Origin: Candidatus Heimdallarchaeota archaeon
Lineage (GTDB): Archaea > Asgardarchaeota > Heimdallarchaeia > Hodarchaeales > Hodarchaeaceae
Assembly: GCA_020353515.1 (NCBI GenBank)
Contig: CP070695.1
Span: 1,864,041-1,928,040 of the forward strand
Reading direction: 5' to 3'
Length of the DNA stretch: 64,000 nt
Each line of letters opens with the position of its first letter. The first letter of the stretch is position 1. The position numbers were made by a program, and so were the translations under genes. Below the pieces are notes generated by a model. That model was not told the DNA's origin and searched no databases. It saw nothing but the letters and a program-made list of their open reading frames with translations. Below, one piece after another: positions 2 to 64,000 of the stretch.

Positions 2-991
2 TCTGGTAATGGAACTATATTCTATCGATGGGATGGAGGAAATAATGGAACAATTGATGAGGGCACTTATATATTAGTTCCAAATCCCGATTTGGAAATT
101 TCTCATTCTCTAGATGTCTATGTGAGAGGTTCTACTGGATTATGGGCTCATTCTAGTTTTTCTTGGATTGTGGATAATAGTCCTCCCTTAATTTCCTGTA
201 ATTTTGAAAATAACTCGATTATTAAGGGAAATATCAAGATTATTGTTTTTTCTTCAGAAGATATTAACTTAACATATAGATTAATAAACACTGAAAATCG
301 AAGTGTTTTAATAAATACTGGTCAAAACCATACGATTTCTTATTCAAATCTAATTAATGGTAGTTATCAGCTATTTATTATTGGTTCAGATGAAGCTCAC
401 AACATTGCTTCCATTACTCTAATATTTTCAGTTTATACAAGTGCATTTAATTGGAATTGGGGATTAGAAGCGAAAATACCACGAACAATCAGAATTATTG
501 ACGCCTCAAGTGACCTTTGGTTCATTCTTACCTTAACTTCAGCAATTGATCAATCCTTCAACCTTACGGTCTTATCAAAGGATTTGTATCCTGTAAAAAA
601 TGATATGATAGAATACGTGATAGAATTCAATTGTGAGAAACCAGATGATATAATTTTTATTAGTTTGACCCTCCAATTGAGTTCTAATAATAGAGTGGTC
701 CCTGTGTATCAATGGGTACATTGGGATGTTGAATCAGAAGGATGGGTAAATATCACAACCTCATATAATGAGGTATCGAATAGTTGGGAAGCAACATATA
801 ATGGGTTTGTTCTCTATTTTGCTTTAATAAATCAAGGAATTAAAACAACCCTTACCTCAGTAACTCCTGGAGGAGGTCAGATTCCTTCGTTTGAAATTAT
901 TCCAGCTATTATGTCATTAATCATGGTTTCAACCTTTGTTTTCAATAAAAGGAGAATGAAGAAGAACTCAAAACGTCTCGGACTGAATTGA
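2..991 (+). CDS. C-terminal part of a surface/extracellular protein with a PGF-CTERM-like sorting signal (5' partial)
   Basis: The frame is open from position 2 (SGNGTIFYRWDGG...), so the gene starts before the window. It has Ig-like beta segments (VDNSPPLI) and many N-x-S/T sequons, and ends IPSFE + hydrophobic helix + KRRMKK. Confidence 0.8.
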   Translation, partial: SGNGTIFYRWDGGNNGTIDEGTYILVPNPDLEISHSLDVYVRGSTGLWAHSSFSWIVDNSPPLISCNFENNSIIKGNIKIIVFSSEDINLTYRLINTENRSVLINTGQNHTISYSNLINGSYQLFIIGSDEAHNIASITLIFSVYTSAFNWNWGLEAKIPRTIRIIDASSDLWFILTLTSAIDQSFNLTVLSKDLYPVKNDMIEYVIEFNCEKPDDIIFISLTLQLSSNNRVVPVYQWVHWDVESEGWVNITTSYNEVSNSWEATYNGFVLYFALINQGIKTTLTSVTPGGGQIPSFEIIPAIMSLIMVSTFVFNKRRMKKNSKRLGLN

Positions 992-992
992 A

Positions 993-2690
993 ATGAGCTA
1001 CAAAGATCCGCCTTCGGACCTCCTAATTGTGAATCAGGACAAAGTTATCTTCAGTTCTGGGATGGGAAAGTTGACAAGACATCCAGAGATTTCAGCCACT
1101 CTTGCTAATGTACTAACTCTCTTCTCTCAAAGAATTCTAAAAGGAGAACATATCGATTCAATTCGTTTTGATAACCACCTGATGGTATTTTTACCTTCTC
1201 AAAATCCTAATTTTCCAGAACTTGCTGCAGTAGTACTAGTTCCAATCGAAGTAAGTGCAAAACATGTTCTTCCTGGTATGAGAATCATCCTTAATTTAAT
1301 GGAAGAATATTTGCTAGGTAAAATTTACGATGCTAAGCTTCCCCAGTTAGATTGCTTCAATAGAGTCATTAACTTTCCTTCTCAGGCGATTTTCCTTTTA
1401 CCAAAAACTGCTGAAGGAGTTCGCTCAGCTCTTGTGCTTTTAGCTTGTTTTGCCCACGATTTTCAGCTTGGTCTTGAGAAAATAACATCCAGGATGTTCT
1501 TGGTTCGAGACGATGATTATTTATCTCTTGAAAATATTATTGAGAAAGTTGACAATCTTGGAGTCTTGTCTTTTTTTCCTCTTCCAAGCCATTTAAAGAA
1601 ACCCTTGAATAAATTCTGTGAAATTGGTCACAAAACACCCACGCGTCAGTTTTTTTCAGCTTTTCCTGACGAAAAACCATTCCAAACATTTGCTAGACTC
1701 GCTGGGTCAAATTCGAATGCGTTTAAAATGAAAACCTTCATTGAAAATGACGAAGCATTAGAAATTATGCAATCAATCGCTTCTTTAAATAAAGTATATG
1801 ATGTTTATGTACGGAATGAGATTCTCCAAGCCACAGTATTGAATCCAGGTCGGGATATCGTAACGACATTATCTTCCCCTCTTTTAAAGAAGATGATGCA
1901 AATAGCAGAACAGAAAGAAGTTACCCACCCCCAAATTACAACTCAATATCGAGATTTAGATCAGGTTGACGGATTTGTTGAGCTAAAAAATGTCAACAGG
2001 GTCTATAAAATCGGAAATCAACAGATATTTGCCTTAAAGAATTTATCTTTGGATTTATCGGGTGGCCAACTTGTAGTGGTCCTAGGTCCATCGGGATCAG
2101 GTAAAACCACCCTTTTAAATGTCATAGGAGGGATTGACAAATGTGAGGGGACAATTAGAGTAGGTGATATTGAAGTCACAAAACTAAGCAAAGGAAAACT
2201 GACAAAATATCGACGGGAGAAGTGTGGGTTTATCTTTCAGTTCTTTAACCTGATACCTGTTCTAACAGCCATTGAGAATATTGAATATGCGGTAGATCTC
2301 TCTAAAAGTAGGAAGATGTCGAAGAACGAAGTAAGAACAAAGACAGAGGAATATGTTAAGAAAATTGGATTATGGGAGAAAAGGTTCCTATTCCCCTCTC
2401 AACTCTCTGGAGGAGAACAACAACAGGTAGCTGCTGCACGTGCGTTTGCTAAGGAACCAGAAATACTACTATGTGATGAACCAACAGGAGAACTTTCGGT
2501 AAAAGAAGGCAAGAAGGTATTAGCGGTCATTCAAGGAATAATTAAAGAGAGACCAAATATGTTAGTGATACTCGTCACTCATAATCAGAAGATAGCTTTA
2601 ATTGGACATAAAGTTATTAGATTACGCTCTGGTAAAGTCGATTCTATTGAAACACAAATGCCAACTCCTGCAGAGAATATTACATGGTGA
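993..2690 (+). CDS. Fusion of an N-terminal longin/DENN-like region (~320 aa) and a LolD/MacB-type ABC ATPase
   Basis: The C-terminal part has Walker A GPSGSGKT, signature LSGGEQ, Walker B LLCDEP and H-loop VTHN. The N-terminal assignment is inferred from the secondary-structure pattern only. Confidence 0.8.
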
Positions 2691-2697
2691 TAGAAAC

Positions 2698-5235
2698 TTG
2701 GCTAAAACGGCTAAAAATATATTTCGTGCTTTGAAAGCTCACAAAGTTCGTTTCTTTACAATTGCATTAGTTATTGCTATAGGAATCACATCATTTAATG
2801 GAATGATCACTGCTTTCGTGCTTATGACAAGAACGTATAACCAAGCATTCACGGACCACAATATGGCTAGTTTCACAATGTTAACAGCAAATCCAGGGGG
2901 TTCTGGTGAAGATGCTTGGATTGATTATAATAATCTTACAACCTACATGGATGAATTTATGACCCTGGACGAAGGATCTGCAGTTATTGGATATGAATTA
3001 AGGATCGTTTATGATACAATATTTGAGATCCGAGGTACTCGTCAAAATGGTCGAATTGTCGCATATACTACTGTTGATGAGAATGGAGACTATCGAGAAC
3101 CTGATGTAAATGGCTTTAAAATAATGGATGGAGAACCATTTTCAGAGACAAGCCAGTACAGAAATGTTTGCCTTGTTGAGATACACCTAGCAACATATTG
3201 GAAGCTGAAACAGCACGAATTTATCGCAGTCGGAGATGATAATACACCCTTTGAAGTACAAGGAACCGTTGGTTCACCAGAGTACCTGATTAATATGGGA
3301 TCCTACGCGGATATTATGCCAAGTCCCCGACGTTTTGGTGTTATTTATCTACCTTTAAGGACAGCTCAACGATTATTAAATGTTCCAGGAAAAGTAAATG
3401 AGATTTCTGTGTTACTTGGTACTGACCTCTTTACCCGCCAACGAGAAGCAATTGCGGATGATCTTCAGGACTTTCTAGAAGAGACTCATGATTTAAAGTT
3501 AAGTGATCCTATCGATAGAGACAAACAAGCCGCTTATTATGTGCTCAAATTAGATATTGAAGAGGCTAGGGAATTTGGTTATGTATTACCAGCAATCATT
3601 CTGGTGATGGCGATGGGAGGATTATATGTGCTGTTAGGGAGAATGGTTGTCGCAGAAAGAAAAGATATTGGTGTCGCTCAAGCTCTGGGTTATAGTCGGA
3701 GAACGATAATCCTTCAGTATCTAGGTATTGCCATGGTTGTAGCCATTATCGGGACTATTTTGGGAACGATACTAGGTTTAGTATTTCTAGAGTGGTTTGG
3801 CCCCCTCTATACTCAAATGCTAACAATACCTTTTGACCCGAAAGTTACAATTGAATGGCCTATCATTATAGTAGGAGTTTTATTAGGTCTTCTTACAGGA
3901 TTCATTGGAGGATATATGCCCATTCGGGGAGCTATTCAACCTCTTCCTGCAGAAAGTCTTCGTTTTGATCCATCACTCCATATCACGACCGGACGCGTAC
4001 CATTCATGGAACGAATATTAAATAAACTAGGAATACATCTGAGAGTCACTGGTTACAAAATTCCAATTAGAAACTTTTTCCGCAGCAAACGACGAACCTT
4101 TTCTTCTGTATTCGCAGTTATTGTGGCAGTTTCCTTAATTTCTATGGTATTTGGTATGATGGAATCAATGACTTATTCTTTATTTTTTCAATATGAAGTC
4201 GCAGAAGATTGGGACCTCAGGGTTGATTATTCAGAAATTCCAATTAATGCCTCTCAGATCGCCATGGGAATTAACGACTCAATTGATGGTGTAGTAAATG
4301 TCACGTACCATCTCATTTCAGGAGCAACAGTCACCTCAGATAATTCAGACGAGAGTAAACAGGTACAATTAATAGGGATGAATGATTCGAACGGCTACAC
4401 GGGACATAAATTTGAATTTGAAGATGGAGGATGGGATCCAACGGGAATTGTACTAAGTGTTCCTGTAGCTGAAAAGTTAAAAGTATGGGAAGGGGATACT
4501 GTAAGATTGGAATTACCTCGTTTAACAAACATAACAAGTACCGCTCCGTTAAGAGCTCATTTTGATATGGTCAACTTTACATTCCGTATTACTGGAATTG
4601 TTGATGAATTTAATGGACTAGTCGCCTACATGGAACTGAATAAGTTAGTTGATGTAAGTGCGTTCCCTGGCCAACCTGCGAATGTGATTTTGATTCAAGT
4701 GGATAATCCCACCCCGAGTAAACTGGACTCAATACGTAAGGAGATTTATCAAAAGTATAGCTACAATATTCGTAATATCTTCACCAAGGAAGAGCAGAGT
4801 AGTGATTTCTTGGATCTTCTTGATTTGATTTATTTTATTATTTACATTGTAGCAGTATTTGCGGTTATACTCTCATGTTCAATCGTTTATAATACCATTT
4901 ATATTAATTTACAGGAGCAGCAAAGAGAGATAGCAACTCTATTAACTATTGGGACACCAAGTAGACGCCTTGTTCGAAATGTAACAGTGGAAAATCTCAT
5001 CATCACAATCATTGGGACAGTCTTAGGGTTAATTCTGGGCTGGATCATGTTATGGTTTTTTATGAGAGTCATTCTGGATCTAGAATTTTTCCGAGTGAAA
5101 CTGTTTATGAGTAATGAAACAATTTTAATATCATTTGGACTGACATTCCTCGGTGTTTTAGTAGCTCAATTCTTCCCCTTAAGAAGAGCTTTGAATTTAA
5201 ATCTCGCAGAAGCAACAAAGGAGAGAGTGGTCTAG
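2698..5235 (+). CDS. FtsX/MacB-like ABC transporter permease (two repeats)
   Basis: Two TM-ectodomain-3TM repeats with the motifs ERKDIGVAQALG and QQREIATLLTIG. Start moved from 2602 to TTG 2698, which follows a GGTGA SD-like motif at 2686-2690. Confidence 0.9.
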   Translation: MAKTAKNIFRALKAHKVRFFTIALVIAIGITSFNGMITAFVLMTRTYNQAFTDHNMASFTMLTANPGGSGEDAWIDYNNLTTYMDEFMTLDEGSAVIGYELRIVYDTIFEIRGTRQNGRIVAYTTVDENGDYREPDVNGFKIMDGEPFSETSQYRNVCLVEIHLATYWKLKQHEFIAVGDDNTPFEVQGTVGSPEYLINMGSYADIMPSPRRFGVIYLPLRTAQRLLNVPGKVNEISVLLGTDLFTRQREAIADDLQDFLEETHDLKLSDPIDRDKQAAYYVLKLDIEEAREFGYVLPAIILVMAMGGLYVLLGRMVVAERKDIGVAQALGYSRRTIILQYLGIAMVVAIIGTILGTILGLVFLEWFGPLYTQMLTIPFDPKVTIEWPIIIVGVLLGLLTGFIGGYMPIRGAIQPLPAESLRFDPSLHITTGRVPFMERILNKLGIHLRVTGYKIPIRNFFRSKRRTFSSVFAVIVAVSLISMVFGMMESMTYSLFFQYEVAEDWDLRVDYSEIPINASQIAMGINDSIDGVVNVTYHLISGATVTSDNSDESKQVQLIGMNDSNGYTGHKFEFEDGGWDPTGIVLSVPVAEKLKVWEGDTVRLELPRLTNITSTAPLRAHFDMVNFTFRITGIVDEFNGLVAYMELNKLVDVSAFPGQPANVILIQVDNPTPSKLDSIRKEIYQKYSYNIRNIFTKEEQSSDFLDLLDLIYFIIYIVAVFAVILSCSIVYNTIYINLQEQQREIATLLTIGTPSRRLVRNVTVENLIITIIGTVLGLILGWIMLWFFMRVILDLEFFRVKLFMSNETILISFGLTFLGVLVAQFFPLRRALNLNLAEATKERVV

Positions 5236-5248
5236 GAGGTATACTCAA

Positions 5249-5995
5249 GTGGCATTTATTACACTAGAGAACATTCAGAAGAATTATACATTAGGGGAAA
5301 CAACAATTCCAGCTTTAAGAGGAATTGATGTCAATATAGAACTTGGAGAACTCGTTATTATTTTCGGTCCATCTGGAGCTGGCAAAACAACACTTTTAAA
5401 CATGATTGGTGGGTTAGATGTCCCTACATCTGGGACTGTGACTGTTGGTAAAATTGCTGTCTCTAAATTGTCTGATAAGTGGTTGACAATTTATCGTCGA
5501 AAGAAAGTTGGGGTTGTATTTCAATTTTTCAATCTAATTTCACGCCTATCCGCTTTAGAAAATGTAGAATATGCTTTAGAATTAGTAGGTGTGAAGAAAA
5601 AGTCCAATGGTGAAGTTACATTTGATTCCAAAGTGATCCGCCAAACAGCGATCGACTACCTTGATAAAGTCGGTCTTCACGATCGGATCCATCATTTTCC
5701 TGCTCAGCTAAGTGGCGGAGAACAACAACGAGTGGCCATTGCAAGAGCGCTAGCAAAAGAACCTGAAATCTTATTAGCCGATGAACCAACTGGTAATTTA
5801 GATTTTAAGATTGGTAGACAAGTCTTGGAAATTATGGAAGCTATGACTGGAAAGAAGTTGAATCGAACTGTGATTATTGTTACCCATAATGAAGCTATCT
5901 GTCCCTTAGGGGATCGTGTGATTCGTTTATCGGATGGTAGGATAGTTGAAGATTATACACAAACTTTTACCCCTGCAAAGGAATTATATTGGTAA
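5249..5995 (+). CDS. LolD/MacB-type ABC transporter ATP-binding protein
   Basis: GPSGAGKT, LSGGEQQRVAIARAL, LLADEPTGNLD and VTHN motifs; GGAGGT SD before the GTG start. Confidence 0.95.
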   Translation: MAFITLENIQKNYTLGETTIPALRGIDVNIELGELVIIFGPSGAGKTTLLNMIGGLDVPTSGTVTVGKIAVSKLSDKWLTIYRRKKVGVVFQFFNLISRLSALENVEYALELVGVKKKSNGEVTFDSKVIRQTAIDYLDKVGLHDRIHHFPAQLSGGEQQRVAIARALAKEPEILLADEPTGNLDFKIGRQVLEIMEAMTGKKLNRTVIIVTHNEAICPLGDRVIRLSDGRIVEDYTQTFTPAKELYW

Positions 5996-6341: not shown

Positions 6342-6755
6342 CTATAGTCCCTCGGGTCGCTCATCCACGATTTTAACGACTTTTGTTCCTCCTCGCATGA
6401 AGAATAATCGCTTAAAATGTGTTCCAAACTTTCTTTTTGTGCTCGAATTGTCATCATAGACTACATTAAGACCCATTATTATTTTACCAACGGTTTGACC
6501 ATTGGTAAAGCTGGGAACCAAAATGAAATAAACAACTATAGTAAAAATAATCATAAGCACAAAAACTGGAAGAAGTACTTCAGTATATGCAATATCCTCA
6601 AAGGTGGGTAATAATTGTTGCATAACAAACCAATCAATTTGGCCTAAAAAAGTAAATATTACAGCCAGAATCACTATAACTACAAGATCGATTATGAGAG
6701 CGATTAAGCGAGGGGCAATTGGGGAGGTTTCATACTTAATTCGTTCAGTTGACAT
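6342..6755 (-). CDS. RDD family membrane protein
   Basis: APRLIALIID and GQTVGKIIMGLNVV are typical RDD motifs. Confidence 0.9.
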   Translation of the reverse strand: MSTERIKYETSPIAPRLIALIIDLVVIVILAVIFTFLGQIDWFVMQQLLPTFEDIAYTEVLLPVFVLMIIFTIVVYFILVPSFTNGQTVGKIIMGLNVVYDDNSSTKRKFGTHFKRLFFMRGGTKVVKIVDERPEGL

Positions 6756-6873
6756 ATTTTATCACTTATTTCTGTTCTTTTATTATATCTATTCAGTTTG
6801 TGACTATATCAGGAATCAAATCATCTTATGCGAGGTTTGTACTCCTATTCGACAATGATTATTAAATATTCTC

Positions 6874-6900
6874 GTGTACACTGTGCACAACCCCTTATAT
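6874..6900 (+). promoter_or_regulatory. Tandem palindromic operator next to a TATA-like box
   Basis: GTGTACAC (6874-6881) and TGTGCACA (6882-6889) are both perfect palindromes. TTATAT at 6895-6900 begins 28 nt before ATG 6923. Confidence 0.55.
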
Positions 6901-6922
6901 GTCATTCCAGAGGATGCGTTAT

Positions 6923-7108
6923 ATGCGAACATCAACAATAACCGTGCGACTACCGTTAAAGGTTTTACACGACATTGAAAGGCTATCAGAAGTCACAAAA
7001 TTACGGCCCTCCGTTCTCTGTGCGTATGTGCTGCAAGACAAGCTGCACGAATGGGCTCATGAATATGCAGAGAATATTTCTAAGGAGATCATCGGTGATC
7101 GCAAATGA
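6923..7108 (+). CDS. Ribbon-helix-helix (CopG-like) DNA-binding protein
   Basis: STITVRLP beta strand followed by two helices. ATG 6923 is preferred over 6899. The stop overlaps the next start (ATGA). Confidence 0.7.
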   Translation: MRTSTITVRLPLKVLHDIERLSEVTKLRPSVLCAYVLQDKLHEWAHEYAENISKEIIGDRK

Positions 7109-7854
7109 TTGATGTCATACTCCGTCTAAGTGCTATGGTTAGCATGTTCTTATTTGCAGCTTTATTCCTTTACGCTGCGATAAAATTTTTTAGAATTTGG
7201 AGAAAATTCAGGGAGGAATCTTTGTTTCATCTTGGTATGTTGAGTCTAGGCATGATCTTCTATTTTCTCATTGTATTTCTTATGGTTGCTTTAGCAGGGG
7301 ATCCTGAAACGACCGTATTTTTACTTAAAAGAGTGATTGGTATTGCGTACTCGATATTATCTCTTGAAATGAGTCTATTTTATGTCACTGCTTTCACAAA
7401 TAGACGTACCCTCTGGGAAAAATATATCCCGTATTTCTTTGGGATCACTACTGGAATTTCTTTTGCTATCTTAGGTATGAGGGAAACAGATCCGTGGTTT
7501 TCGGTTCTTCTATTAATTGCATACATCGCACCCTTATTCTTGATAACAATTCTTGTTGTTAGAATTGTACTTAGTTCTTATCATCTTTTACAAGATGACC
7601 AGCTTACCCCCGAGGACCGAGGATTCATCAAAACACTTGCAGGTACAGCTTTAATCCTCTTTATTGGTGCGATAGGAGATCTTTCATTCTTTTGGGCCGT
7701 TATTCTAATCGGGGCTGATCTTTGGACTTTTATTGTGTTACTCAGTGGAATTATAACACCTTTGATACTTGTTCTATCAATTTATCTCATTAGAGCTATA
7801 TTTTTAAACATTGAAGAAGCTGATATTGTCTATTTAATGAATCTCTTGAGTTAA
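7105..7854 (+). CDS. Seven-TM membrane protein, unknown function
   Basis: Seven hydrophobic segments and no soluble domain; translationally coupled to the RHH gene. Confidence 0.8.
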   Translation: MIDVILRLSAMVSMFLFAALFLYAAIKFFRIWRKFREESLFHLGMLSLGMIFYFLIVFLMVALAGDPETTVFLLKRVIGIAYSILSLEMSLFYVTAFTNRRTLWEKYIPYFFGITTGISFAILGMRETDPWFSVLLLIAYIAPLFLITILVVRIVLSSYHLLQDDQLTPEDRGFIKTLAGTALILFIGAIGDLSFFWAVILIGADLWTFIVLLSGIITPLILVLSIYLIRAIFLNIEEADIVYLMNLLS

Positions 7855-7890
7855 AGCCCTTATTTTTACACTGTTAAGAAGAGGGTCATC

Positions 7891-8082
7891 TCAAGAAGTC
7901 TGTTTCGAGGGACAATGTGTATCCCCATAGGAACAAAACACGCAACAATCACCTACTTCAGGTTGAAGTATCGCTTGGCAATTCCTACATTTATGAAGAA
8001 CAACACACTGGTCAATAGGCATCTCCAGAGTATCAGCAAAATCACATTTCGGACAAGTAAGTATTGAACTGGTTTTCATCAT
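7891..8082 (-). CDS. GDCCVxC domain-containing Cys-rich protein
   Basis: LTCPKC...MPIDQC...CRNC...GDCCVFCSYGDTHCP matches the family pattern. Confidence 0.85.
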   Translation of the reverse strand: MMKTSSILTCPKCDFADTLEMPIDQCVVLHKCRNCQAILQPEVGDCCVFCSYGDTHCPSKQTS

Positions 8083-8152
8083 ATCCCCTAGATTGAGAGA
8101 GGATAAAAAAAGTATTTCTTCTAAAATCAGACTTCATGAACATGACACACTC

Positions 8153-9358
8153 TCAAATCGACATGGAGTTTTCATCATTTGTCATAGATTTTCTTTCCAC
8201 ATTCTTTATTCGTTCAAGTATTGAGGGATGAGACATAAAAAATAATTTTTCCCACCATGGGGGGTCGACATCTGATAGATTTTGGTCCGCCATCTTGATG
8301 AACAGACTTTTAGCGACAGCTGGATTCCTGATAATAGAAGAAGCAAAATCATCTGTTTCTGCTTCTTGCCTTCTTGAGTACCAGAGACTCGGGATATCTA
8401 TTATAAAAGAGAATATCCAAAAACATAGGCCTATAACTGGGATACCGCTAACATCTCCAATGATTGAAGAATAACCTAAAAGATTGGTAAGAGGGGAAAA
8501 AGTCATATAGGTAAGCAAGAAGATCAAAAAAGTCGTAAAACTTCCAAGAATGATCCTTTTCCAGAAATCATGGTGTTTAAAATGACCAATCTCGTGAGCA
8601 AGGATCCATTTAATCTCATTCGGGGTATATCTATTTAGCATTGTGTCTGCAATGATAATGCGTCGAGTATTTCCAAGTCCTAAAAGAGCAGCATTTGAAG
8701 TGGTTGCCATCTCACCGATTTTCCAGATGAATGCTTTTGTGGTTTTAATACCTATCTGCTCTGTCATTTCCACTAGCTCTACTGCTAATTCAGGACGAGT
8801 GTCCTCTAATGGGTCAAATTTAAAGAAAAGCGGGAGTAAAACTATCGGGATCAGATTAGAAAAGATAATTGTGAATAGAATGAGTATTAGCGTTGCCCAA
8901 ATCCACCAAGTACTTGGAAAAGTTCTCAGTAACCAATAAAATCCCTCAAACATGGGAAAACTTATCAGGAAACCAATGAAATTTCCTTTGATGTATCGAA
9001 TCAACCATTTCTTATTTGTAAGTTTAGATAATCCATATTTTCTAGATAACCTTGAATGTAAGTAAAAAGACACAGGAAACTCAGCAAAATTTACAATAAG
9101 GAAACCCACAATAAAGAAGATACCTGTAAGAATGAAAGGATCATTTATGCCAATATTATTCAATAAATTACGAAAAAATACAGTTAATCGGGAAAGTAGT
9201 ACACCAATAGAGAGTATGAAAGAAATAATCATCAACCGAACGCTATAACGGCGAGAAGTACGTGTATAGGCAATCGCTAGCTCACGACGTTTAGGATCAA
9301 ACTCTGTTATTAGTGTGGGTTCAGTCAGAGGGATTTCATCTAAATTTTCACTATCCAC
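8153..9358 (-). CDS. M48 family zinc metallopeptidase (Ste24-like)
   Basis: NAALLGLGNTRRI, HEIGH, EAETD and SHPSILERI motifs; about 7 TM helices. Confidence 0.93.
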   Translation of the reverse strand: MDSENLDEIPLTEPTLITEFDPKRRELAIAYTRTSRRYSVRLMIISFILSIGVLLSRLTVFFRNLLNNIGINDPFILTGIFFIVGFLIVNFAEFPVSFYLHSRLSRKYGLSKLTNKKWLIRYIKGNFIGFLISFPMFEGFYWLLRTFPSTWWIWATLILILFTIIFSNLIPIVLLPLFFKFDPLEDTRPELAVELVEMTEQIGIKTTKAFIWKIGEMATTSNAALLGLGNTRRIIIADTMLNRYTPNEIKWILAHEIGHFKHHDFWKRIILGSFTTFLIFLLTYMTFSPLTNLLGYSSIIGDVSGIPVIGLCFWIFSFIIDIPSLWYSRRQEAETDDFASSIIRNPAVAKSLFIKMADQNLSDVDPPWWEKLFFMSHPSILERIKNVERKSMTNDENSMSI

Positions 9359-9681: not shown

Positions 9682-12600
9682 ATGCAAATCTTAAAAAAGA
9701 ACCCATTGTTAATTCTAACTTTATTTATAATATTAGCTCCATTGGTAGTTGGAATACAATTTTTTGGAGATAATATGCCAATAACAATTATTGAATCGCT
9801 AAATGAAGATAATATAGAAACTATTCCCATATTGAATGAAAGAAACGACGATATAGAGTCAATCTATGAAAAAGAATCTAGTATTTATCTGAATAACGTC
9901 TTAGAACGCCTTAGATTAGGAGAAGAGCCAAGTACTTCAGAAAGTGTATTTCTCTCTTATTCTAATCGAATACCTGATCTACCAGAATGGGTAGAAATAC
10001 AAAGGTACTTTAAACTAATCCCCTTGATACAAGTAAGTACTACTCTTGAAAATATTCCCAATCTTACAGAAATTCGTCACGTTGACGCTGTTATCCCAGT
10101 CGGAAAAGGAGTATTAGCAAAATTATCTAGTTTTACGGAGGATTATAATCCTTACATTGGTGAATTCCCCCTTTTATTAAATGAAACTGTTTCATTGGTT
10201 GAAGCTGAAAATGATAATACAACTGGTTCTGGTGTTATAATCGCTATATTGAGCACCGGAATTGATGAGACCCATCCAATGTTGGATGATCAGGATGACG
10301 ATTGGTCGACAACTGATGATCTTAAGATTATTGATTCATATGATGCATGGGATGGAGGTATAACTGATGATCAAAATGGCCGAGGAACTGCTCTTGCCTC
10401 AATTGTTGCTGGAACAGGTGCCGTTGGTGGTAGATTAGAGACAGAATTATCCTTTACATATCCTTATCCTTATGAGACAGATCCAGAATATGAAACCCAA
10501 ATAGTAAATACGACCATTAATATTGGGACTCAGATGGGTCTTGCGCCTGAAGCTTCTCTTTTCGATGTGAAGATTACTAATGATGCTGGTGATGCATATG
10601 ACGAGGGTATAGCAATTGAAGGAATTGAATGGGCTGTTGACCATGGAGCAGATGTAATTTTGTTAGATGATCTACCTTCAGCAACTTCTGCAATTATTTC
10701 GGTGATTGAAGCAGCTACCTCTCGAGGAGCTCTGGTAGTCGTCCCAGCTGGAGACTTTGTCCCACCAGGAGGTTATGACGATGATAACATAGCACCCTAC
10801 TATTCAATAAACTCTCCTGCTTCTGCACCTACTGCATTAACCGTGGGAGCAACCACGGAAACTAATTCGTTATGGGTACAATCTGAACGAGGTCCAGTCC
10901 CCGTAACGGAACATTCAAAACCTGATGTCGCTGCTCCAGGAGTTTTTATGTTAGGAGCAAGCATTGATTATTCAACTAGTGAAGGATCAAACCCTGATGG
11001 TTGGCAAGGAGAGCCAGGTGACATTGATGATACTCTCTATTTTGATGTCTTTTCCAGTACAGCGATGGCTGCTGCAGTTACAGCTGGTGTCACTGCGCGC
11101 TTAATAGAGGCTTATCCTGGAGCTTCAGCAACAGCCATCAAAATAGCTTTAAGAAAAGGAGCGACTGATCTTGGATTTAACGAAATGGCTCAAGGTAAAG
11201 GAAAAATAAGTTTGTCAGAAGCCCTTGATATCTTAGAGGCAGCTCCTAAAGAAGCAAACAATTTAGTAGGGAATGTGTATAAAAAGGAATTCACGGTTCC
11301 AATGGTAAATTATACTGATTTTTCAGGGAAAAGGATCCTCATTGATGGTTCCTGGTCTACATCCCCTCTAGCTTTTCCAGGTGGAGGACCTTACGATTGG
11401 AGTCAGCAAACAAACGGTAATCTTAGCACATTAGGCGTTACCTCAAACTGGCAACATCCTTATGATGATACTGCGAACCAGTACACTTGGTATAATGTAA
11501 GTTATCAAGGTGCGTCACAAGTACGGATCACCCTCAATAATCTAACAGTGGCTACTGGGGATAACTTTACCATTTATCGATCTTCCACTCCAAATGGGCC
11601 TCTTACTAGTGTTTATGGTCCAACGAGTAGTAATTTTACTGGGAGTTTCACTGATACGACTACTGATAATTACTTCTACTTTAGATGGGGTAGTAATGGA
11701 GATGGATATACGACTGGTCAGAGTGTTTTTGGAATTTATGGCTTTGTTGATCTATGGTTCTATGCTGATACTACCCAACCACCCGCAGGGACTTTTGAAT
11801 TTGAAGAACTCGTTACTCAACTTATTGACCTCGGAGCTGTCGTTGAATATTGGTATGCCAATTCTGCAGATGCACCTCCTACCTCTATATTATTAGAATA
11901 CTATGATATTTACTTCCTTGGACAACCACTCGCAGTTGCGACCACAGGTATTCCTGGTGAATATTATCAATGGATGAGTGGAAATTTAACGAATTATCTG
12001 AATGCAGGTGGTCGAGTACTATTTATTGGAGACTATGAAAATCAATATTATAATGATGCGACAGAGGCTTTGGGGGTGACGTGGCACTATGGTGGTGGTG
12101 GAGGGCCAACAACTGATATTGTGAATCATGTTCTTACAACTTATCCATTTACAATTGAAGAACTTTTAATAGACGCTCCGTATGCCTATTTTACTGGTAC
12201 TGCTCCAACTCTGGTTCAAGAAGCGGGAAAAGCGACAATCAAGTATTATAACCAAAACAATGGAAAAGCTGTATTCGTTGCGGATGAGGATGTTTTCAAT
12301 GATGAAATGTGGGATAATCCATTCCCAACAAACCTTAACCCAAGCCGATATAATAATTCTCAATTAGCCATGAACATTTTCTATTGGCTGAGCGATATCA
12401 GTTATCAGTCTGGAGAACGAGATGATGGAGGTGAAGAGCATTTTGAACTCATTTCTTATGAATATCGCCCAATTATGACTGATGAAGACCTCTGGGAGGT
12501 TGAGATTGTTCTCCAAAATATTGGGAATTTCACCAGTCAAGCATGGGTAGCTTTTGGATTCGATTACACACCAACATCATACACATTAGGTTTCGGAGCG

Positions 12601-15435
12601 ATTGGTAACCCAGATGGAGTAATGGATACAGCTGGAGAAGATAATGCCAATGATACGTGGCACTTTTCTATTGGAGGAGATGGGGATATCAATTCATTAC
12701 AATCTAATACCACAATAGAATTCTTTTACAATATTTCAGAAAACTATCCAGTAAGTCAGATTGCAATGCCCTATATTGAGATATCTGCCTCAGGAATGAA
12801 TCGAGATACAGCGGAATGCCTTCTACTCTTAAATGGTTATCAAATTGGCCCAATATATGAAACAAACACATCTACTGGTGGAACTGGAGTTATGTATTAT
12901 CCTATTCACCCTATTAGCAGATTACAACAGTATAATAACACTGTAGAAATCACTGTTCCAGATTCTATCGATTTAACTTTGGAATCCTTCAGGATTGTAG
13001 GGTACAACTTCAGTAATTCTTTAGGCACTCAACATATTGCTACATCAAATATCGCTCCTAATCAAAACGCAGCCATAACATTTCAATATACTCCCCCTGA
13101 TCTAGAGGAACCTGCTTATTATGAACCTGAAATCATCTTCACACCTTATAATATGACTCATGCTCAATTCTCACCTGGATATGCATCTTCTCTCTTCAAA
13201 GAGTTGGCTTTAACCGTCGATTATGGACTCATTGATCCAGGCTATTACAACGAATTTGGCACACAAGTATACGCAATTCCTAAGACAACACGTCAAGGTG
13301 ATCTTCCACTCTTGTATGACATTACCCCAGGATCTCTTAGTTCCTCTTCGAGCACTAAGATTGCACAATTCCCAGGTGACATCAGAGTCGACGGATTAAC
13401 CGTGATGAGTAGCAGAATTGTTGATGATCCAAGTTTAAGGTTATCAGGAACTATAACTTCTGTAGCAGGACTTGGAAACTATTCAGAAGCCTCACTAGGG
13501 ATAAGTTCCTATGTGTTGGCCAATTTAGCACCAGAGCTATTCTTACTAAATGATACATGGGCTTCCACAGCTCAACTAGATATGAAATACCTTAACCATT
13601 CCTCCATTGGTCCTATCCTTCAAGTCGACATCCCTCAAACCCAGTCACCAACCACTCTTAGTGGCACTCTCTCTTTGATTTCAAATGGAACGTCGCTATA
13701 TCAAATTACGCTTCAAATAACTATTAGCAATCCTATATCTTCTTTCTTGCTTCTTGATTCTCTAGATATAACACAAGATCCTGGTGGATATCTTGAGCGA
13801 GACTATGATAAACTTTGGGATCAGCTATATGAGATGTGGCAAATAGCGGTTGAAGCGGGATATGATATAGATTCCCTCACTCAAACATGGTATCTGTATG
13901 GTCACCGAACTCATGATGACAGCGTGTCTGCCGATCCTTTCGAATTTTTAGATAAACATGTTTGTAGTGTTCCTCCAGAGGAAGATCTGCCATATGAGGG
14001 ACTTATTGGTGTTGATCTAGCTGACACATTCAATCCAGGGTATTTGGATGACTACTTTACCAGGGGTGGTAATCTAATTCAGCTCGGAATAGGAGGACCA
14101 GTACCAGCTAGCGGTGATCACTTGGGACCTAATTTTATTGCTGATATTGATTATTTTGACAGAGAAGAGGAGATGACAACTCTCGTAAGTGGAACTGATT
14201 CAATTAATCCTCTCATGGACACAGTCAATCAACTTTTCTACCTTGGTGGAGGTTACATGGTAATCGATCAGGAGAGTTACGATGATCAACTAACTTACGA
14301 TGTGATTACTGGTCAAAATTGGCTATTTAGCGGTCCCATTGTGGCACCTAATCGTGATATAGCTTTCATTTATCATGATGCTGTTTATCCTGATCGCTTT
14401 GGGTATGATCAAGGGCAATATACCAGTCTCGCACAAACCTATAAGGGATTAAAGGTTGTGGTTGGATCAGCTAGTATGACTCAAAGTTGGTTCCTTGAAC
14501 AGACTGATTATTGGGCTTATGGGTCAATGAAATACGCAGCAGATCAAAATATCATTGCAGAAGAGTTCAGTGTTAATTTAGGCAATAATAAGTTTGTTGA
14601 AAACATCTTTAGAGTCGGTGGAAATAAAGCCCCTACAATAGAGTCAATAAACATGTCAACACCTCATGTAGGACCTGGAGATTATGTAACTGTTCGAGTA
14701 AAGGTATCTGATGATCAAGAGAATCCCTCTGAGTTGACTGTTTTATGCCCAGAGAAGATAACTCCTGGAATGAACTACATAAATTGCTCCTATGATTCCA
14801 ATTCCAGCACGTTCATAGGGAGCTTTGCAGTTGTTGACACCTCCTTCATTGATTTTTGGAACATCTATGTTATTGATGATCTCTATAGGATCACAGAAGC
14901 TGTCGATGGGGTAAAAAGATTTCTAATCCCTGAAATGAACGTAAAACCTGTTGCTTGGATTCCCTTCAATGATGAAATGAACTATTATTCAATCATTGAT
15001 GTGGAAAAGGGTGAATTACTCTCTTTTGCGTTTTATTACGATGATTTCGAAGATGGAGACGCTATTATATGCAATATAAGTTTGGTTTATTATTTCAATG
15101 AAGAAGAAACAGAAATAATAAGTTCAGAGCTTTTTGCTGGATTGGGTCAAGGTATATTCTTAGTAGATACTACTACTTTAAGGGATGGAACTCATATAGT
15201 TTTTGCATTTGTCACAGACACAGACGGTGGTACAGCAGAATACCAATTGGCAGGATTTAACATCGGCAGAGGAACTCTCTATAAACCAAAACCAAAACCA
15301 GCAGGCATTGATCCAGTCCCAATTCTCATTGTAGGTGGTTCAACGTTAGGTCTCGCTGCAGCAGTCGGTGGTGGATGGTATTTCTTGTTACATAGACGAG
15401 GTATGGGTATCAGAGATCTTTTCCGACGAGATTAA
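9682..15435 (+). CDS. Large membrane-anchored S8 subtilase-like protein with substituted catalytic residues
   Basis: S8 scaffold motifs (GSGVIIAILSTGID, GLAPEASL, ALTVGA, KPDVAAPG), an N-terminal hydrophobic signal, and a C-terminal TM followed by a basic tail. Confidence 0.9.
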   Translation: MQILKKNPLLILTLFIILAPLVVGIQFFGDNMPITIIESLNEDNIETIPILNERNDDIESIYEKESSIYLNNVLERLRLGEEPSTSESVFLSYSNRIPDLPEWVEIQRYFKLIPLIQVSTTLENIPNLTEIRHVDAVIPVGKGVLAKLSSFTEDYNPYIGEFPLLLNETVSLVEAENDNTTGSGVIIAILSTGIDETHPMLDDQDDDWSTTDDLKIIDSYDAWDGGITDDQNGRGTALASIVAGTGAVGGRLETELSFTYPYPYETDPEYETQIVNTTINIGTQMGLAPEASLFDVKITNDAGDAYDEGIAIEGIEWAVDHGADVILLDDLPSATSAIISVIEAATSRGALVVVPAGDFVPPGGYDDDNIAPYYSINSPASAPTALTVGATTETNSLWVQSERGPVPVTEHSKPDVAAPGVFMLGASIDYSTSEGSNPDGWQGEPGDIDDTLYFDVFSSTAMAAAVTAGVTARLIEAYPGASATAIKIALRKGATDLGFNEMAQGKGKISLSEALDILEAAPKEANNLVGNVYKKEFTVPMVNYTDFSGKRILIDGSWSTSPLAFPGGGPYDWSQQTNGNLSTLGVTSNWQHPYDDTANQYTWYNVSYQGASQVRITLNNLTVATGDNFTIYRSSTPNGPLTSVYGPTSSNFTGSFTDTTTDNYFYFRWGSNGDGYTTGQSVFGIYGFVDLWFYADTTQPPAGTFEFEELVTQLIDLGAVVEYWYANSADAPPTSILLEYYDIYFLGQPLAVATTGIPGEYYQWMSGNLTNYLNAGGRVLFIGDYENQYYNDATEALGVTWHYGGGGGPTTDIVNHVLTTYPFTIEELLIDAPYAYFTGTAPTLVQEAGKATIKYYNQNNGKAVFVADEDVFNDEMWDNPFPTNLNPSRYNNSQLAMNIFYWLSDISYQSGERDDGGEEHFELISYEYRPIMTDEDLWEVEIVLQNIGNFTSQAWVAFGFDYTPTSYTLGFGAIGNPDGVMDTAGEDNANDTWHFSIGGDGDINSLQSNTTIEFFYNISENYPVSQIAMPYIEISASGMNRDTAECLLLLNGYQIGPIYETNTSTGGTGVMYYPIHPISRLQQYNNTVEITVPDSIDLTLESFRIVGYNFSNSLGTQHIATSNIAPNQNAAITFQYTPPDLEEPAYYEPEIIFTPYNMTHAQFSPGYASSLFKELALTVDYGLIDPGYYNEFGTQVYAIPKTTRQGDLPLLYDITPGSLSSSSSTKIAQFPGDIRVDGLTVMSSRIVDDPSLRLSGTITSVAGLGNYSEASLGISSYVLANLAPELFLLNDTWASTAQLDMKYLNHSSIGPILQVDIPQTQSPTTLSGTLSLISNGTSLYQITLQITISNPISSFLLLDSLDITQDPGGYLERDYDKLWDQLYEMWQIAVEAGYDIDSLTQTWYLYGHRTHDDSVSADPFEFLDKHVCSVPPEEDLPYEGLIGVDLADTFNPGYLDDYFTRGGNLIQLGIGGPVPASGDHLGPNFIADIDYFDREEEMTTLVSGTDSINPLMDTVNQLFYLGGGYMVIDQESYDDQLTYDVITGQNWLFSGPIVAPNRDIAFIYHDAVYPDRFGYDQGQYTSLAQTYKGLKVVVGSASMTQSWFLEQTDYWAYGSMKYAADQNIIAEEFSVNLGNNKFVENIFRVGGNKAPTIESINMSTPHVGPGDYVTVRVKVSDDQENPSELTVLCPEKITPGMNYINCSYDSNSSTFIGSFAVVDTSFIDFWNIYVIDDLYRITEAVDGVKRFLIPEMNVKPVAWIPFNDEMNYYSIIDVEKGELLSFAFYYDDFEDGDAIICNISLVYYFNEEETEIISSELFAGLGQGIFLVDTTTLRDGTHIVFAFVTDTDGGTAEYQLAGFNIGRGTLYKPKPKPAGIDPVPILIVGGSTLGLAAAVGGGWYFLLHRRGMGIRDLFRRD

Positions 15436-54490: not shown

Positions 54491-55027
54491 ATGGTGCATT
54501 ATAGTTGTAAAATTGTCATGCTGGGAGAAGGATCAGTTGGAAAGACCTCCCTCATTCGTAGGTACATTCAACACACATTTACACACGATTATATTACAAC
54601 GATTGGTAGTAATTTTCTTATAAAAAAATTACAGCTTGAGGAGGGAATAAATATGACTATGCAAGTCTGGGATATTTCTGGGCAAGATACTTTTAGAACC
54701 ATCCGAAAGCAGTACTATCTTTATGCTCGAGGGGGAATAATGGTTTTCGATCTTACAAGACCTTCAACCTTCCACGAATTAGAAAAATGGTATGCAGATT
54801 TTACACAAAGAGTGGGAAAAGTCCCTTTAATGCTATTTGGAAATAAATCTGATTTAAGAGATCAAATTGGTGTTCAAAGAGAAGAGGGAAAGGCATTAGC
54901 AAAAAAATTTAACGCTCCCTACTACGAAACATCTGCCCTTGATGGAACTGGTGTTGAACCTGGATTTCTCGAACTAGCTTTGAGAATTGTAGCCCATATC
55001 AAGTCACAACCAAAGAAATTTGCCTAA
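54491..55027 (+). CDS. Rab-like small GTPase
   Basis: G1 GEGSVGKTS, G2 TIG, G3 WDISGQ, G4 NKSD and G5 ETSAL; no C-terminal Cys. Confidence 0.95.
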   Translation: MVHYSCKIVMLGEGSVGKTSLIRRYIQHTFTHDYITTIGSNFLIKKLQLEEGINMTMQVWDISGQDTFRTIRKQYYLYARGGIMVFDLTRPSTFHELEKWYADFTQRVGKVPLMLFGNKSDLRDQIGVQREEGKALAKKFNAPYYETSALDGTGVEPGFLELALRIVAHIKSQPKKFA

Positions 55028-56439: not shown

Positions 56440-57210
56440 GTGACACATATGAAGAAATGGCGGCTATTAAATTTCTCTGTACATCAAGCCTCCATGAATA
56501 TGGCGATAGATGAAGCAATTTTCCGGAATTTTGAAGAGGAAAATACTCTTCGTTTATATGGTTGGAAACCTAGTGCTGTTTCGATTGGAAAAAATCAATG
56601 TATTGAAGAAGAGGTTGATCTAGATTCAATCCATAGACTTGGTTTTGATTGTGTCAGACGAATCTCTGGAGGGGGAGCTGTATTTCATGATGAAGTTGGG
56701 GAATTAACCTATAGTATTATTACAAACCTTCAGAATTTTAAAATACAGACAATCGAAGCAGTATATTACGAGATATCAAGAATTATTTTCCAGCCTCTTG
56801 AAAAAATCGGTCTAAACCTTGATTATGGGCAGATCCATTGTCCTTCCGTTTTTTGTGGTGGTAAGAAAATCTCTGGTAATGCTCAAGCCCGTGATGGAAA
56901 TGTTGTCTTACAACATGGCACCATTCTAGTGAAATATCGTCCTGAGATTATGTACTCAGTTTTAAGAGCTCGTCCAGGAAGAACACAAAAAAGTATGGTT
57001 GAATCTGTGTACCAACACATAACCACCCTCACAAATCTCTTGAAGAAGGACATCACCCCCCAAGAATTGGCAGAATACCTACTCAATTCTTTAGCGGAAA
57101 CTGATCCCCTCCAACACATCTCTGGAGAATTAACTTCAGAGGAAAAACAATTAGCTTTAGAATTAGCTTCGACTAAATATGGATCTAAAGAATGGTTGTA
57201 TTCAAGGTGA
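56440..57210 (+). CDS. lplA: Lipoate-protein ligase family protein (catalytic domain)
   Basis: NMAIDEA, LRLYGW, VRRISGGGAVFHD, KKISGNAQ and LQHGT motifs. Confidence 0.92.
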   Translation: MTHMKKWRLLNFSVHQASMNMAIDEAIFRNFEEENTLRLYGWKPSAVSIGKNQCIEEEVDLDSIHRLGFDCVRRISGGGAVFHDEVGELTYSIITNLQNFKIQTIEAVYYEISRIIFQPLEKIGLNLDYGQIHCPSVFCGGKKISGNAQARDGNVVLQHGTILVKYRPEIMYSVLRARPGRTQKSMVESVYQHITTLTNLLKKDITPQELAEYLLNSLAETDPLQHISGELTSEEKQLALELASTKYGSKEWLYSR

Positions 57211-58158
57211 ACCAAAAACAACATTAGTAGAAAATTCACGATTCAAGAAATCAATTATAAAATTCTTTGGAAAACGTATTTTTCCATCTTTCTGAAATAA
57301 CGAGAGCTTTTCAGCAAAAGCTGTTTCAACATAGGTTAAAACTGACTCTGCAATGACACGGGTGACACCAAGATCAGACTCTTTGTCAGTAATTATAGCA
57401 CATAATACCCCCTCACGCTTAACCATTAAAATAGAATGATTTAAAGTATTTAATGATTGTAATCCCTCAGTAGGCCCCATCATTCCACTTGTAAATTGAT
57501 CAAATGCATTTAAAAACCCTGGAATCATATCAAGATCAAGACCATTCGTATTTCCATTGGTGAATAGGTATGAAGCAATCGGAATTCCAGTCGGGAGGTA
57601 GAGATAGAAACCAAGTAACTTAATTTGACTATCCCCAATATTCGTGGCAGTTTTCTGTGCAAACCAAGAAAGTGCTTCATCAAGATTTGTTCCAAGTTTA
57701 ATCGAAACTTTAAAGATTCGAAATGAACGATTTGGATTTTGGATGGGAAGCTGAGGTAATCTAATTTTGTCAATTAATTTTTCTAAGCCAACGTGATTTA
57801 GATCGGATTTGTTTGCTAATATTAAAAGTGGAGCTTCTATATTCCAATCTAAACACTTCCAAAGCCAGTCGACTACTTCATCGAATTTTTCTGTATCATT
57901 GGTATCAATGACAAAGATAATCCCTTGGGATAGCTGAATATAATTCTTCCAAAACAGTTGTCTGAAATGTTGATGACCACCTAAGTCAAAAAGTTGGAAA
58001 ATATTTCCCTTCATTTCTATTACTTCGACATCTAGTCCTGCAGTTGGAAGTGTTTGGTGATACCTGCCAGTTTGGAGGCGGACACTTAGAGTGGTTTTCC
58101 CTGCGTTCTCTAATCCTACAATAGCTATCGGAATGCGCCTTTCGGAATGCGTATTCAA
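57202..58158 (-). CDS. Arf/Sar-like GTPase with a C-terminal longin-like domain
   Basis: GLENAGKTT, PTAG, FDLGGH and NKSD; the C-terminus GFYLYLPTGIPI...IPGFLNAFDQF fits an Asgard longin pattern. Confidence 0.9.
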   Translation of the reverse strand: MNTHSERRIPIAIVGLENAGKTTLSVRLQTGRYHQTLPTAGLDVEVIEMKGNIFQLFDLGGHQHFRQLFWKNYIQLSQGIIFVIDTNDTEKFDEVVDWLWKCLDWNIEAPLLILANKSDLNHVGLEKLIDKIRLPQLPIQNPNRSFRIFKVSIKLGTNLDEALSWFAQKTATNIGDSQIKLLGFYLYLPTGIPIASYLFTNGNTNGLDLDMIPGFLNAFDQFTSGMMGPTEGLQSLNTLNHSILMVKREGVLCAIITDKESDLGVTRVIAESVLTYVETAFAEKLSLFQKDGKIRFPKNFIIDFLNREFSTNVVFGSP

Positions 58159-63323: not shown

Positions 63324-63938
63324 CTACGTACTGGCTATAGAAAGGATACTCCCATAGAGCTCATTCATCCCGCTGCCTTCTTTCGCGGAAATAGGGATTA
63401 TAGCACTTTGGAAAGTCTCCTCTACAAGGCTTGTATCAGCTTCAGGCAAATCTGTCTTGTTTGCGGCTACAATCAATGGAATATTCCTTGCTTCTAAGTT
63501 TCCAAGGACAGTCCAATTAATTTGATCAAATGGGGCTCTAGCAGCATCAACCACAACGATTGCAGCATCTAGTTTGTCAAGTGATTGGATAGCTTTTATA
63601 ACGCCCCTTGTTGCTTCTTTGGCACGTTCTATACTCTCCTGTCGTGACAATCCAAAGGATTGGAACTCACGATAATCGACCGATGTAGCGATACCTGGTG
63701 TATCAACCACTGTAAGATCAATGGAACCACTATGATCTGAGACCGTACAATGTTCTAATGCTACCACATCACGTGTTTCATGAGGAATTGGGCTAACATC
63801 TCCAAGAGGTGTTCCATTCCCACATTCATTAGAAATTCTGTTTGCTAGCGTAGTTTTTCCAGCATTGGGGGCCCCTAAAATGCCAATTGTTAGTTTTGAT
63901 TTACGACTTCGTGCAAAGATCCGCGAAAGGATACTCAT
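63324..63938 (-). CDS. oapA: OapA Era-like GTP-binding protein
   Basis: GAPNAGKTTLAN, IPHETR, DTPG, RAKEATRGV, NKTD and ISA motifs. ATG 63938 follows a GGAGGT SD. Confidence 0.9.
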   Translation of the reverse strand: MSILSRIFARSRKSKLTIGILGAPNAGKTTLANRISNECGNGTPLGDVSPIPHETRDVVALEHCTVSDHSGSIDLTVVDTPGIATSVDYREFQSFGLSRQESIERAKEATRGVIKAIQSLDKLDAAIVVVDAARAPFDQINWTVLGNLEARNIPLIVAANKTDLPEADTSLVEETFQSAIIPISAKEGSGMNELYGSILSIAST

Positions 63939-64000
63939 GAGTTTTTTACCTCCAGTCATATACATTAATATTCGATTACTGAGTTACATCTTGACTTCCT

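Follow-up and report, generated by a model that had tools for sequence, protein, structure and literature searches.

The window analysed here is a stretch of 64,000 nucleotides that begins within an operon for a membrane ABC machine. At its edge lies the 3' part of a gene for a surface protein of about 670 amino acids (2 to 991, forward strand), which ends in a C-terminal motif, a membrane helix and a basic tail. This gene is the first of the operon in all relatives seen. A sequence-only reading of the window had called its product a CTERM surface protein; by eye the C-terminal tail indeed looks CTERM-like, although none of the NCBIfam sorting models matches the protein. The gene stops at 991 and the next open reading frame runs from 993 to 2690 on the same strand, confirming the 1-nt spacing and the uninterrupted frame described earlier. 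Its 565-amino acid product consists of a longin domain followed by a pseudo-DHH domain (together, the module), a variable linker (residues ~312-327, 1926 to 1973) and an ABC ATPase domain of the LolD/MacB type, ABC1 (1974 to 2687), recognised by its motifs and by Pfam and NCBIfam matches. The extra N-terminal part, which had also been noticed, amounts to about 325 residues without a Pfam or NCBIfam match. Next come, on the forward strand, a duplicated (ADOP-like) MacB/FtsX permease of 845 amino acids with two MacB_PCD and two FtsX domains (2698 to 5235, with a likely TTG start at 2698) and a second, canonical ABC ATPase, ABC2 (5249 to 5995). An RDD-family membrane protein is encoded on the reverse strand (6342 to 6755). 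In the ancestral operon the RDD gene lies between the surface gene and ABC1, and it has been relocated in this lineage.

Pfam ABC_tran covers residues 348-498 of the fused protein and the best NCBIfam models are DevA, MacB and LolD, all NCBIfam matches of this operon being below the curated cut-offs. Walker A (residues 365-372), the Q-loop, the LSGGEQ signature, the DE of Walker B and the H-switch are intact, as they are in 21 of 21 fused proteins checked. The D-loop reads GELS (residues 499-502, 2487 to 2498), not GNLD, in all ABC1 orthologs, fused or unfused. Acquisition of GELS together with the fusion is rejected by its presence in the unfused proteins. The GELS D-loop is older than the fusion, and it suggests that ABC1 may form asymmetric ATP sites with ABC2, which has GNLD.

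The type VII class of ABC systems works by mechanotransmission (PMC11627006). Like MacB, LolCDE, FtsEX and the ADOP-type systems, the operon combines LolD/MacB/DevA-like ATPases with a permease that has the MacB periplasmic core and FtsX domains, and it encodes a type VII (MacB/LolCDE/FtsEX-like) machine in which two different ATPases drive one duplicated permease. It differs from the known systems in being archaeal, in pairing a single duplicated permease with two distinct ATPases (of which one has the GELS D-loop), and in the 310-aa add-on. To judge from the gene content, the machine probably handles the surface protein of the operon or some other envelope substrate. The earlier description of a MacB/LolD-type ATPase fusion in an envelope operon holds, since the fusion is conserved and its cognate MacB_PCD/FtsX permease lies in the same operon.

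A search with residues 1-315 retrieves 25 proteins, and those that are named come from Hodarchaeales-type Asgard archaea. Twenty are in-frame ABC fusions (60-89% identity), two end after the module and three have another C-terminal half. The linkers of the fused proteins vary in length. Because the in-frame form recurs in 20 database proteins, the fusion is biological and an assembly artefact is ruled out. The same fusion is also in frame in seven other genomes. Pfam gives only scattered weak matches among the 25 members (MC4 in three of them). In the ESM Atlas, feature matches are all below 0.9 and structure matches have a TM below 0.5, the leads being of the longin type only. In part of one genus of Hodarchaeales, one of the ATPase motors of the ABC machine thus carries the module as a borrowed add-on of about 310 residues.

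The AlphaFold (AF2) model of residues 1-312, built from 48 sequences, has a pLDDT of 88.7 and a pTM of 0.88. Residues ~5-127 (1005 to 1373, forward strand) form a longin domain of the order beta-beta-alpha-beta-beta-beta-alpha-alpha, identified from the model with VIA and Foldseek. DSSP assigns strands 9-14 and 17-22, helix 26-48, strands 56-58, 62-68 and 77-84, and helices 93-107 and 116-127, with a pLDDT mostly of 76-95. VIA aligns this part with Mon1-Ccz1 (5ldd_D; Z 11.2, rmsd 3.1 over 97 residues) and with the Vamp7 longin (Z 9.3, rmsd 3.5 over 110 residues, spanning 1-126), and Foldseek finds Fuzzy with an E of 3.5e-4. Further fold matches are to TRAPP and, by circular permutation, to roadblock/MglB. 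The domain lacks the N-terminal helix, unlike roadblock; the roadblock matches begin at their residue ~16-28, and the longin matches extend to 126-131. The longin proposed from the letters alone is thus borne out in its strand and helix order by the model and by the structural matches. Residues 5-127 share fold and order with LD1 of Mon1, Ccz1, Fuzzy and Inturned, with TRAPP, AP sigma and MglB (Z 9-11.2). In contrast to the longin GTPase regulators, the fused protein has a single longin, at 10-16% identity to theirs, which continues into a DHH-like domain and an ATPase. Elsewhere in the genome, the HMM of the module's longin has only one other match (E 1.2e-4), a standalone longin of 145 amino acids (Fuz_longin_1, E 0.0026) on the reverse strand at L170:429-863, which is a candidate partner.

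Residues ~128-311 (1374 to 1925, forward strand) comprise a parallel alpha/beta part at 130-225 and then helices to 311. Structural matches and column counts indicate a catalytically dead N-terminal domain of the DHH type found in RecJ, GAN, Cdc45 and NrnA. The VIA matches are 7e15_D (Z 9.7, rmsd 3.8, 169 aligned), the PAP phosphatase 8a8k (Z 9.5) and RecJ-Cdc45 proteins (Z 9.1-9.4). The DHH scores are moderate (Z 9-9.7, rmsd 3.8-6.4) yet consistent across the family. An hhalign comparison with Hodarchaeales DHH proteins gives a best E of 0.069, which is not significant; the match falls on motif I. Adenosine kinase, which appears when the HMM is run against PDB sequences (E 0.04-0.09), is taken as a chance match and is absent from the fold lists.

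A second copy of the module in the genome, 44% identical, is the N-terminal half of a protein of 658 amino acids (L031:8573-10549; G000 C1 2590572-2592548). We refer to it as the parent. It consists of a longin, a pseudo-DHH domain, a linker, a DHHA1 domain and a small alpha/beta domain. Modelled without its longin, the parent (pLDDT 86) shows the DHH domain at 8-212, a disordered linker, a DHHA1-like domain at 248-377 and a small kinase-like alpha/beta domain at 392-487. The DHHA1-like domain resembles a T. maritima PDE and DhhP (Z 6.3-7.0, rmsd ~3), and the small domain has a match of Z 8.0. All top Foldseek matches of the parent are DHH/DHHA1 proteins, among them a DHH PAP phosphatase (E 6.8e-6) and RecJ-Cdc45 (E 8e-5). 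Its C-terminus carries a strongly conserved G(I/V)(G/S/A)(F/W/Y)SRW. All 24 Hodarchaeales genomes searched have the parent gene, against none of 376 other Asgard genomes; it is also found in LC_3 (HeimC3_26940).

The strongest argument for DHH ancestry, rather than DENN, is the succession of DHH and DHHA1 in the parent, the layout of RecJ, NrnA and Cdc45. The sequence-only reading had taken the second part of the module for the alpha/beta core of cDENN. Were this so, uDENN longin, cDENN and dDENN would make the module a Rab GEF carried by an ABC ATPase. There is a certain appeal in this idea, since DENN-domain proteins have been described in Asgard archaea (10.1101/2020.10.19.343400) and the tripartite layout, with an N-terminal longin followed by alpha/beta and helical parts, resembles that of eukaryotic and Asgard DENN/folliculin-like proteins. 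However, DHH-family proteins are the best matches for 128-311 in all four structure searches that rank that part, and the stretch read as the start of cDENN aligns with DHH motif I, albeit in a weak profile match. Among the best 50 VIA matches of both models, no DENN, folliculin, C9orf72 or NPRL2 chain is recognisable by its title, although such an absence is compatible with a DENN fold. Foldseek returns a chain of the Commander/DENND10 complex at rank 33 only (E 9e-3, prob 0.33, rmsd 19). Pfam DENN, uDENN, dDENN and folliculin models match none of the 25 members, although these models are insensitive here, PF02141 giving one weak match in 151 Asgard genomes. The module also differs from DENN/folliculin-like proteins in lacking the operon context of roadblock, GTPase and DENN genes (10.1101/2020.10.19.343400). 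Structural comparison of the N-terminal part returns the anticipated longin, but DHH proteins in place of DENN. The models point to a DHH-type domain for residues 128-311, and a true DENN module appears highly improbable. The correction has some general use: an Asgard longin followed by an alpha/beta lobe, tempting as a DENN call, can be a longin with a dead DHH domain.

The DHH catalytic motifs are missing from the domain. A remnant of motif I, TAEG-x-x-SA at 139-146, is its most conserved spot (G142 in 36 of 36 aligned rows, E/D141 in 31). There is TAEG at motif I itself, F or I after strand 3, and an IGHK-type sequence at the triad, with His in five of 36 rows. In these column counts neither the motif II Asp nor the DHH triad is retained, motifs II-IV being placed by strand order. 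Position 266 is Asp in 15 of the 36 rows, mostly in ABC-linked copies, and Asn in the window protein. The fused protein also lacks DHHA1 (or DHHA2), the ABC domain following directly. With neither the DHHA1 half nor intact metal-binding motifs, the fused module is probably no nuclease. It has in common with the DHH/DHHA1 phosphoesterases (archaeal RecJ/GAN, Cdc45, NrnA/PAP phosphatase) the fold of 128-311 and the motif I remnant, and is set apart from them by the loss of the catalytic Asp and His residues, by the longin in front and by an ABC ATPase in the place of DHHA1. The host genome retains five ordinary DHH genes. A dead DHH protein that serves as a scaffold has a precedent in Cdc45.

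The conserved motif I remnant and the Asp at position 266 in some copies could also mean that the dead DHH pocket still binds a nucleotide, a phosphate or a metal and regulates ABC1 allosterically. Yet in DHH enzymes the substrate binds between DHH and DHHA1, in a cleft whose other side is absent from the fusion, and the motif II Asp and the triad are gone, with Asn at 266 in the window protein. We regard such a ligand sensor as very unlikely.

The census of the genus puts the origin of the fusion in perspective. The permease is present in all 22 genomes. ABC1 is fused in frame to the module in eight of them, stands alone (241-251 aa) in ten and is split from the module in two; one genome (G019) keeps a remnant of the module and one (G021) is unscored. 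The permease gene of another, G017, has an in-frame TGA (L083:1450-4008), which is either a sequencing error or the mark of a broken gene. In ten genomes the order is the ancestral surface-RDD-ABC1-permease-ABC2, and the P0025 loci show an intermediate order, surface-RDD-module+ABC1. All 27 ABC-linked modules fall in one clade (100/99), sister to the parent P0023 (99/98) and outside the parents of their own genus. P0023 represents a deep-branching lineage whose parent gene is located in the GTPase locus described below. Because the ABC-linked modules form a single clade with this sister, the module arrived once; the tree is compatible both with a transfer from a sister lineage and with an ancient duplication. 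Synteny and trees show that the copy lost DHHA1, was inserted once between the RDD gene and the existing ABC1, and became joined to ABC1. The order of fused and solo clades is not resolved in the ABC1 tree; it is the monophyly of the module, its tree position and the synteny that argue for gain rather than repeated loss.

In G019 an internally deleted remnant (L082:3796-4029), consisting of the first ~49 and last ~12 codons and lacking residues ~50-296, lies between RDD and an intact ABC1. As this ABC1 groups with the fused ones (98/95), the deletion is a secondary loss. Both module domains are nonetheless under purifying selection, with dN/dS values mostly of 0.05-0.2, as against 0.04-0.09 for ABC1. 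The module is thus conserved but optional: gained once, then split twice and deleted once. Intermediates record how, in Hodarchaeales, a prokaryotic membrane machine acquired a trafficking-type domain by shuffling. In Asgard archaea such domains have already been described as extensively shuffled, in a lineage-specific way (10.1101/2020.10.19.343400), which makes the fusion less surprising. All of its parts are of known kinds. The fusion is absent from the published literature searched, where neither this combination nor any longin and pseudo-DHH add-on on an ATPase was found.

In two lineages, separate in both trees, the module and ABC1 are in different frames. The breaks occur at the linker, which in the window gene is in frame and has no A-run, and they coincide with runs of A8-A11 (L007:2103-2123; L071, L072, L067, L073; L006, L069, L070; L065, L066). 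In the first lineage a run of A10-A11 directly follows the last module helix, and three diverged strains (L007 and L071 are separated by a dS of 0.2-0.4) have ABC1 in the -1 frame. In the second, an A8 lies ~17 codons further; one population has a shift of -1 there and another a shift of +1. G003 also carries an A8 at this position but is in frame. The out-of-frame junctions recur in independent assemblies and in a gap-free Logan contig match. At both breaks the downstream frame is open from the A-run onward. Runs of A10 or more are rare within coding strands (2 of 57 in G000).

These A-runs would fit programmed frameshifting or polymerase slippage. L071 and L072 carry heptamers of the A-AAA-AAT/AAC type, and a programmed -1 frameshift is known from Sulfolobus fucA1, where two ORFs are likewise offset by -1 at such a heptamer (PMC1616953). 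The split relatives differ from fucA1 in that one strain needs +1 and coupled restart is an alternative. No stable downstream stem was found in the A10-A11 group. The split forms can be read equally well as plain fission with coupled restart, since runs of Lys codons are mutation hotspots and several split strains have a start codon overlapping the module stop or just after it. Should the A-runs prove to be recoding sites, they would join the very few frameshift cases known from archaea.

The split forms bear on whether the join itself matters. It may not, since G019 has lost the module with ABC1 intact and two lineages are out of frame. One may go further and suppose that the truncated parent copy acts alone, for example as a competitor or as an alternative subunit in the complex of the parent, its join to ABC1 being tolerated but unneeded. 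In two independent out-of-frame lineages the module is still under purifying selection (dN/dS ~0.1 in a split lineage), the overlapping or adjacent start codons would provide translational coupling, and ten genomes have the same operon without the module. On the other hand, the frame is kept in 20 proteins down to ~60% identity while linker lengths vary, and the module is always found with ABC1 and never apart from it. Moreover, the breaks lie at A-runs of a kind rare inside coding strands and are followed by an open frame, as would be the case if these lineages still made a fused product. An incidental fusion therefore seems unlikely to us.

The sequence-only reading also raised the prospect of a link to small-GTPase signalling, citing Rab- and Arf-like genes in the window. 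Both are present, namely a Rab-like gene (54491-55027, forward strand) and an Arf-like gene with ~130 extra residues (57202-58158, reverse strand), as is an MMR_HSR1-type GTPase gene (63324-63965, reverse strand). The genome has at least 54 small-GTPase-like ORFs, or ~0.7 per 64 kb. As the Rab- and Arf-like genes are 52-56 kb away and at chance density, they are no evidence for a link, and there is no GTPase gene in the ABC operon.

The only real hint of such a link comes from Rab- and MglA-like genes beside the parent, not the fusion. In family f1 and in L068 the parent lies downstream of Rab-like, MglA-like and Sua5 genes, and in G022 it is within 4 kb of the same Rab- and MglA-like GTPases. 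The cluster at L031:2732-8512 comprises genes for a Rab-like GTPase (184 aa), Trm56, a TPR-like protein, a gelsolin-domain protein with PT repeats, a second Rab-like GTPase (179 aa), an MglA-like GTPase (250 aa) and Sua5; its order is identical in L068 and partial in G022. The 250-aa MglA-like paralog has no adjacent MglB, unlike the canonical MglA of the genome, which has two flanking genes of roadblock/MglB-like sequence. The MglA-like match of G005 (L159) contains an internal TAA, again a sequencing error or a broken gene.

This neighbourhood admits a model in which the longin, as a dimer, makes direct contact with a small GTPase and serves as its GEF, GAP or effector. The likeliest partner would be the MglA-like or Rab-like GTPase beside the parent, whose state would control or position the ABC machine. 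The top structural matches of the longin are GTPase regulators (Mon1-Ccz1, Fuzzy-Inturned, MglB), and the lack of an MglB gene next to the MglA-like paralog also speaks in its favour. However, longins also serve as plain adaptors, as in AP sigma and SNAREs. Three distant Hodarchaeales loci have no GTPase gene closer than 8 kb to the parent, and the MglA-like family is far wider (203 of 400 genomes at E<=1e-25) than the parent gene; the ABC operon, for its part, is devoid of GTPases. We hold direct wiring to a GTPase to be possible but doubtful. If the longin does bind one, it would physically couple an ABC envelope machine to GTPase signalling. In the boldest version the module links a type VII envelope machine to a circuit of Rab/MglA-like GTPases, in an order of Asgard archaea that has been proposed as the nearest to eukaryotes, and programmed slippage at the A-run of the linker sets the ratio of tethered to free module in some lineages. 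That all of this is right is improbable.

The reading we prefer, and whose chances we put about evenly, is that the module is a non-catalytic and optional docking handle on the cytoplasmic side, carried by ABC1. Longin and roadblock domains form dimers in Mon1-Ccz1, Fuzzy-Inturned, MglB and Ragulator. The longin of the module may pair with another longin or roadblock protein, most simply with the full-length parent. Such pairing would tie the ABC machine to the complex or site of the parent, or would gate ABC1. The machine itself would work without the module, since some genomes lack it or have deleted it. The parent gene is a better target for study than the fusion.

Two other features of the window lie downstream of the operon. 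A set of genes for RDD, a 249-aa membrane protein, an M48 (CAAX-protease-like) peptidase, a redoxin and a DsbD-like protein (6342-9358, and L032:11346-12782) has remained close to the ABC operon in many relatives despite rearrangements, and is possibly a cluster for envelope-protein maturation. It is followed on the forward strand by a gene for a 1917-aa subtilase (Peptidase_S8, 9682-15435), which has long regions without assignment.
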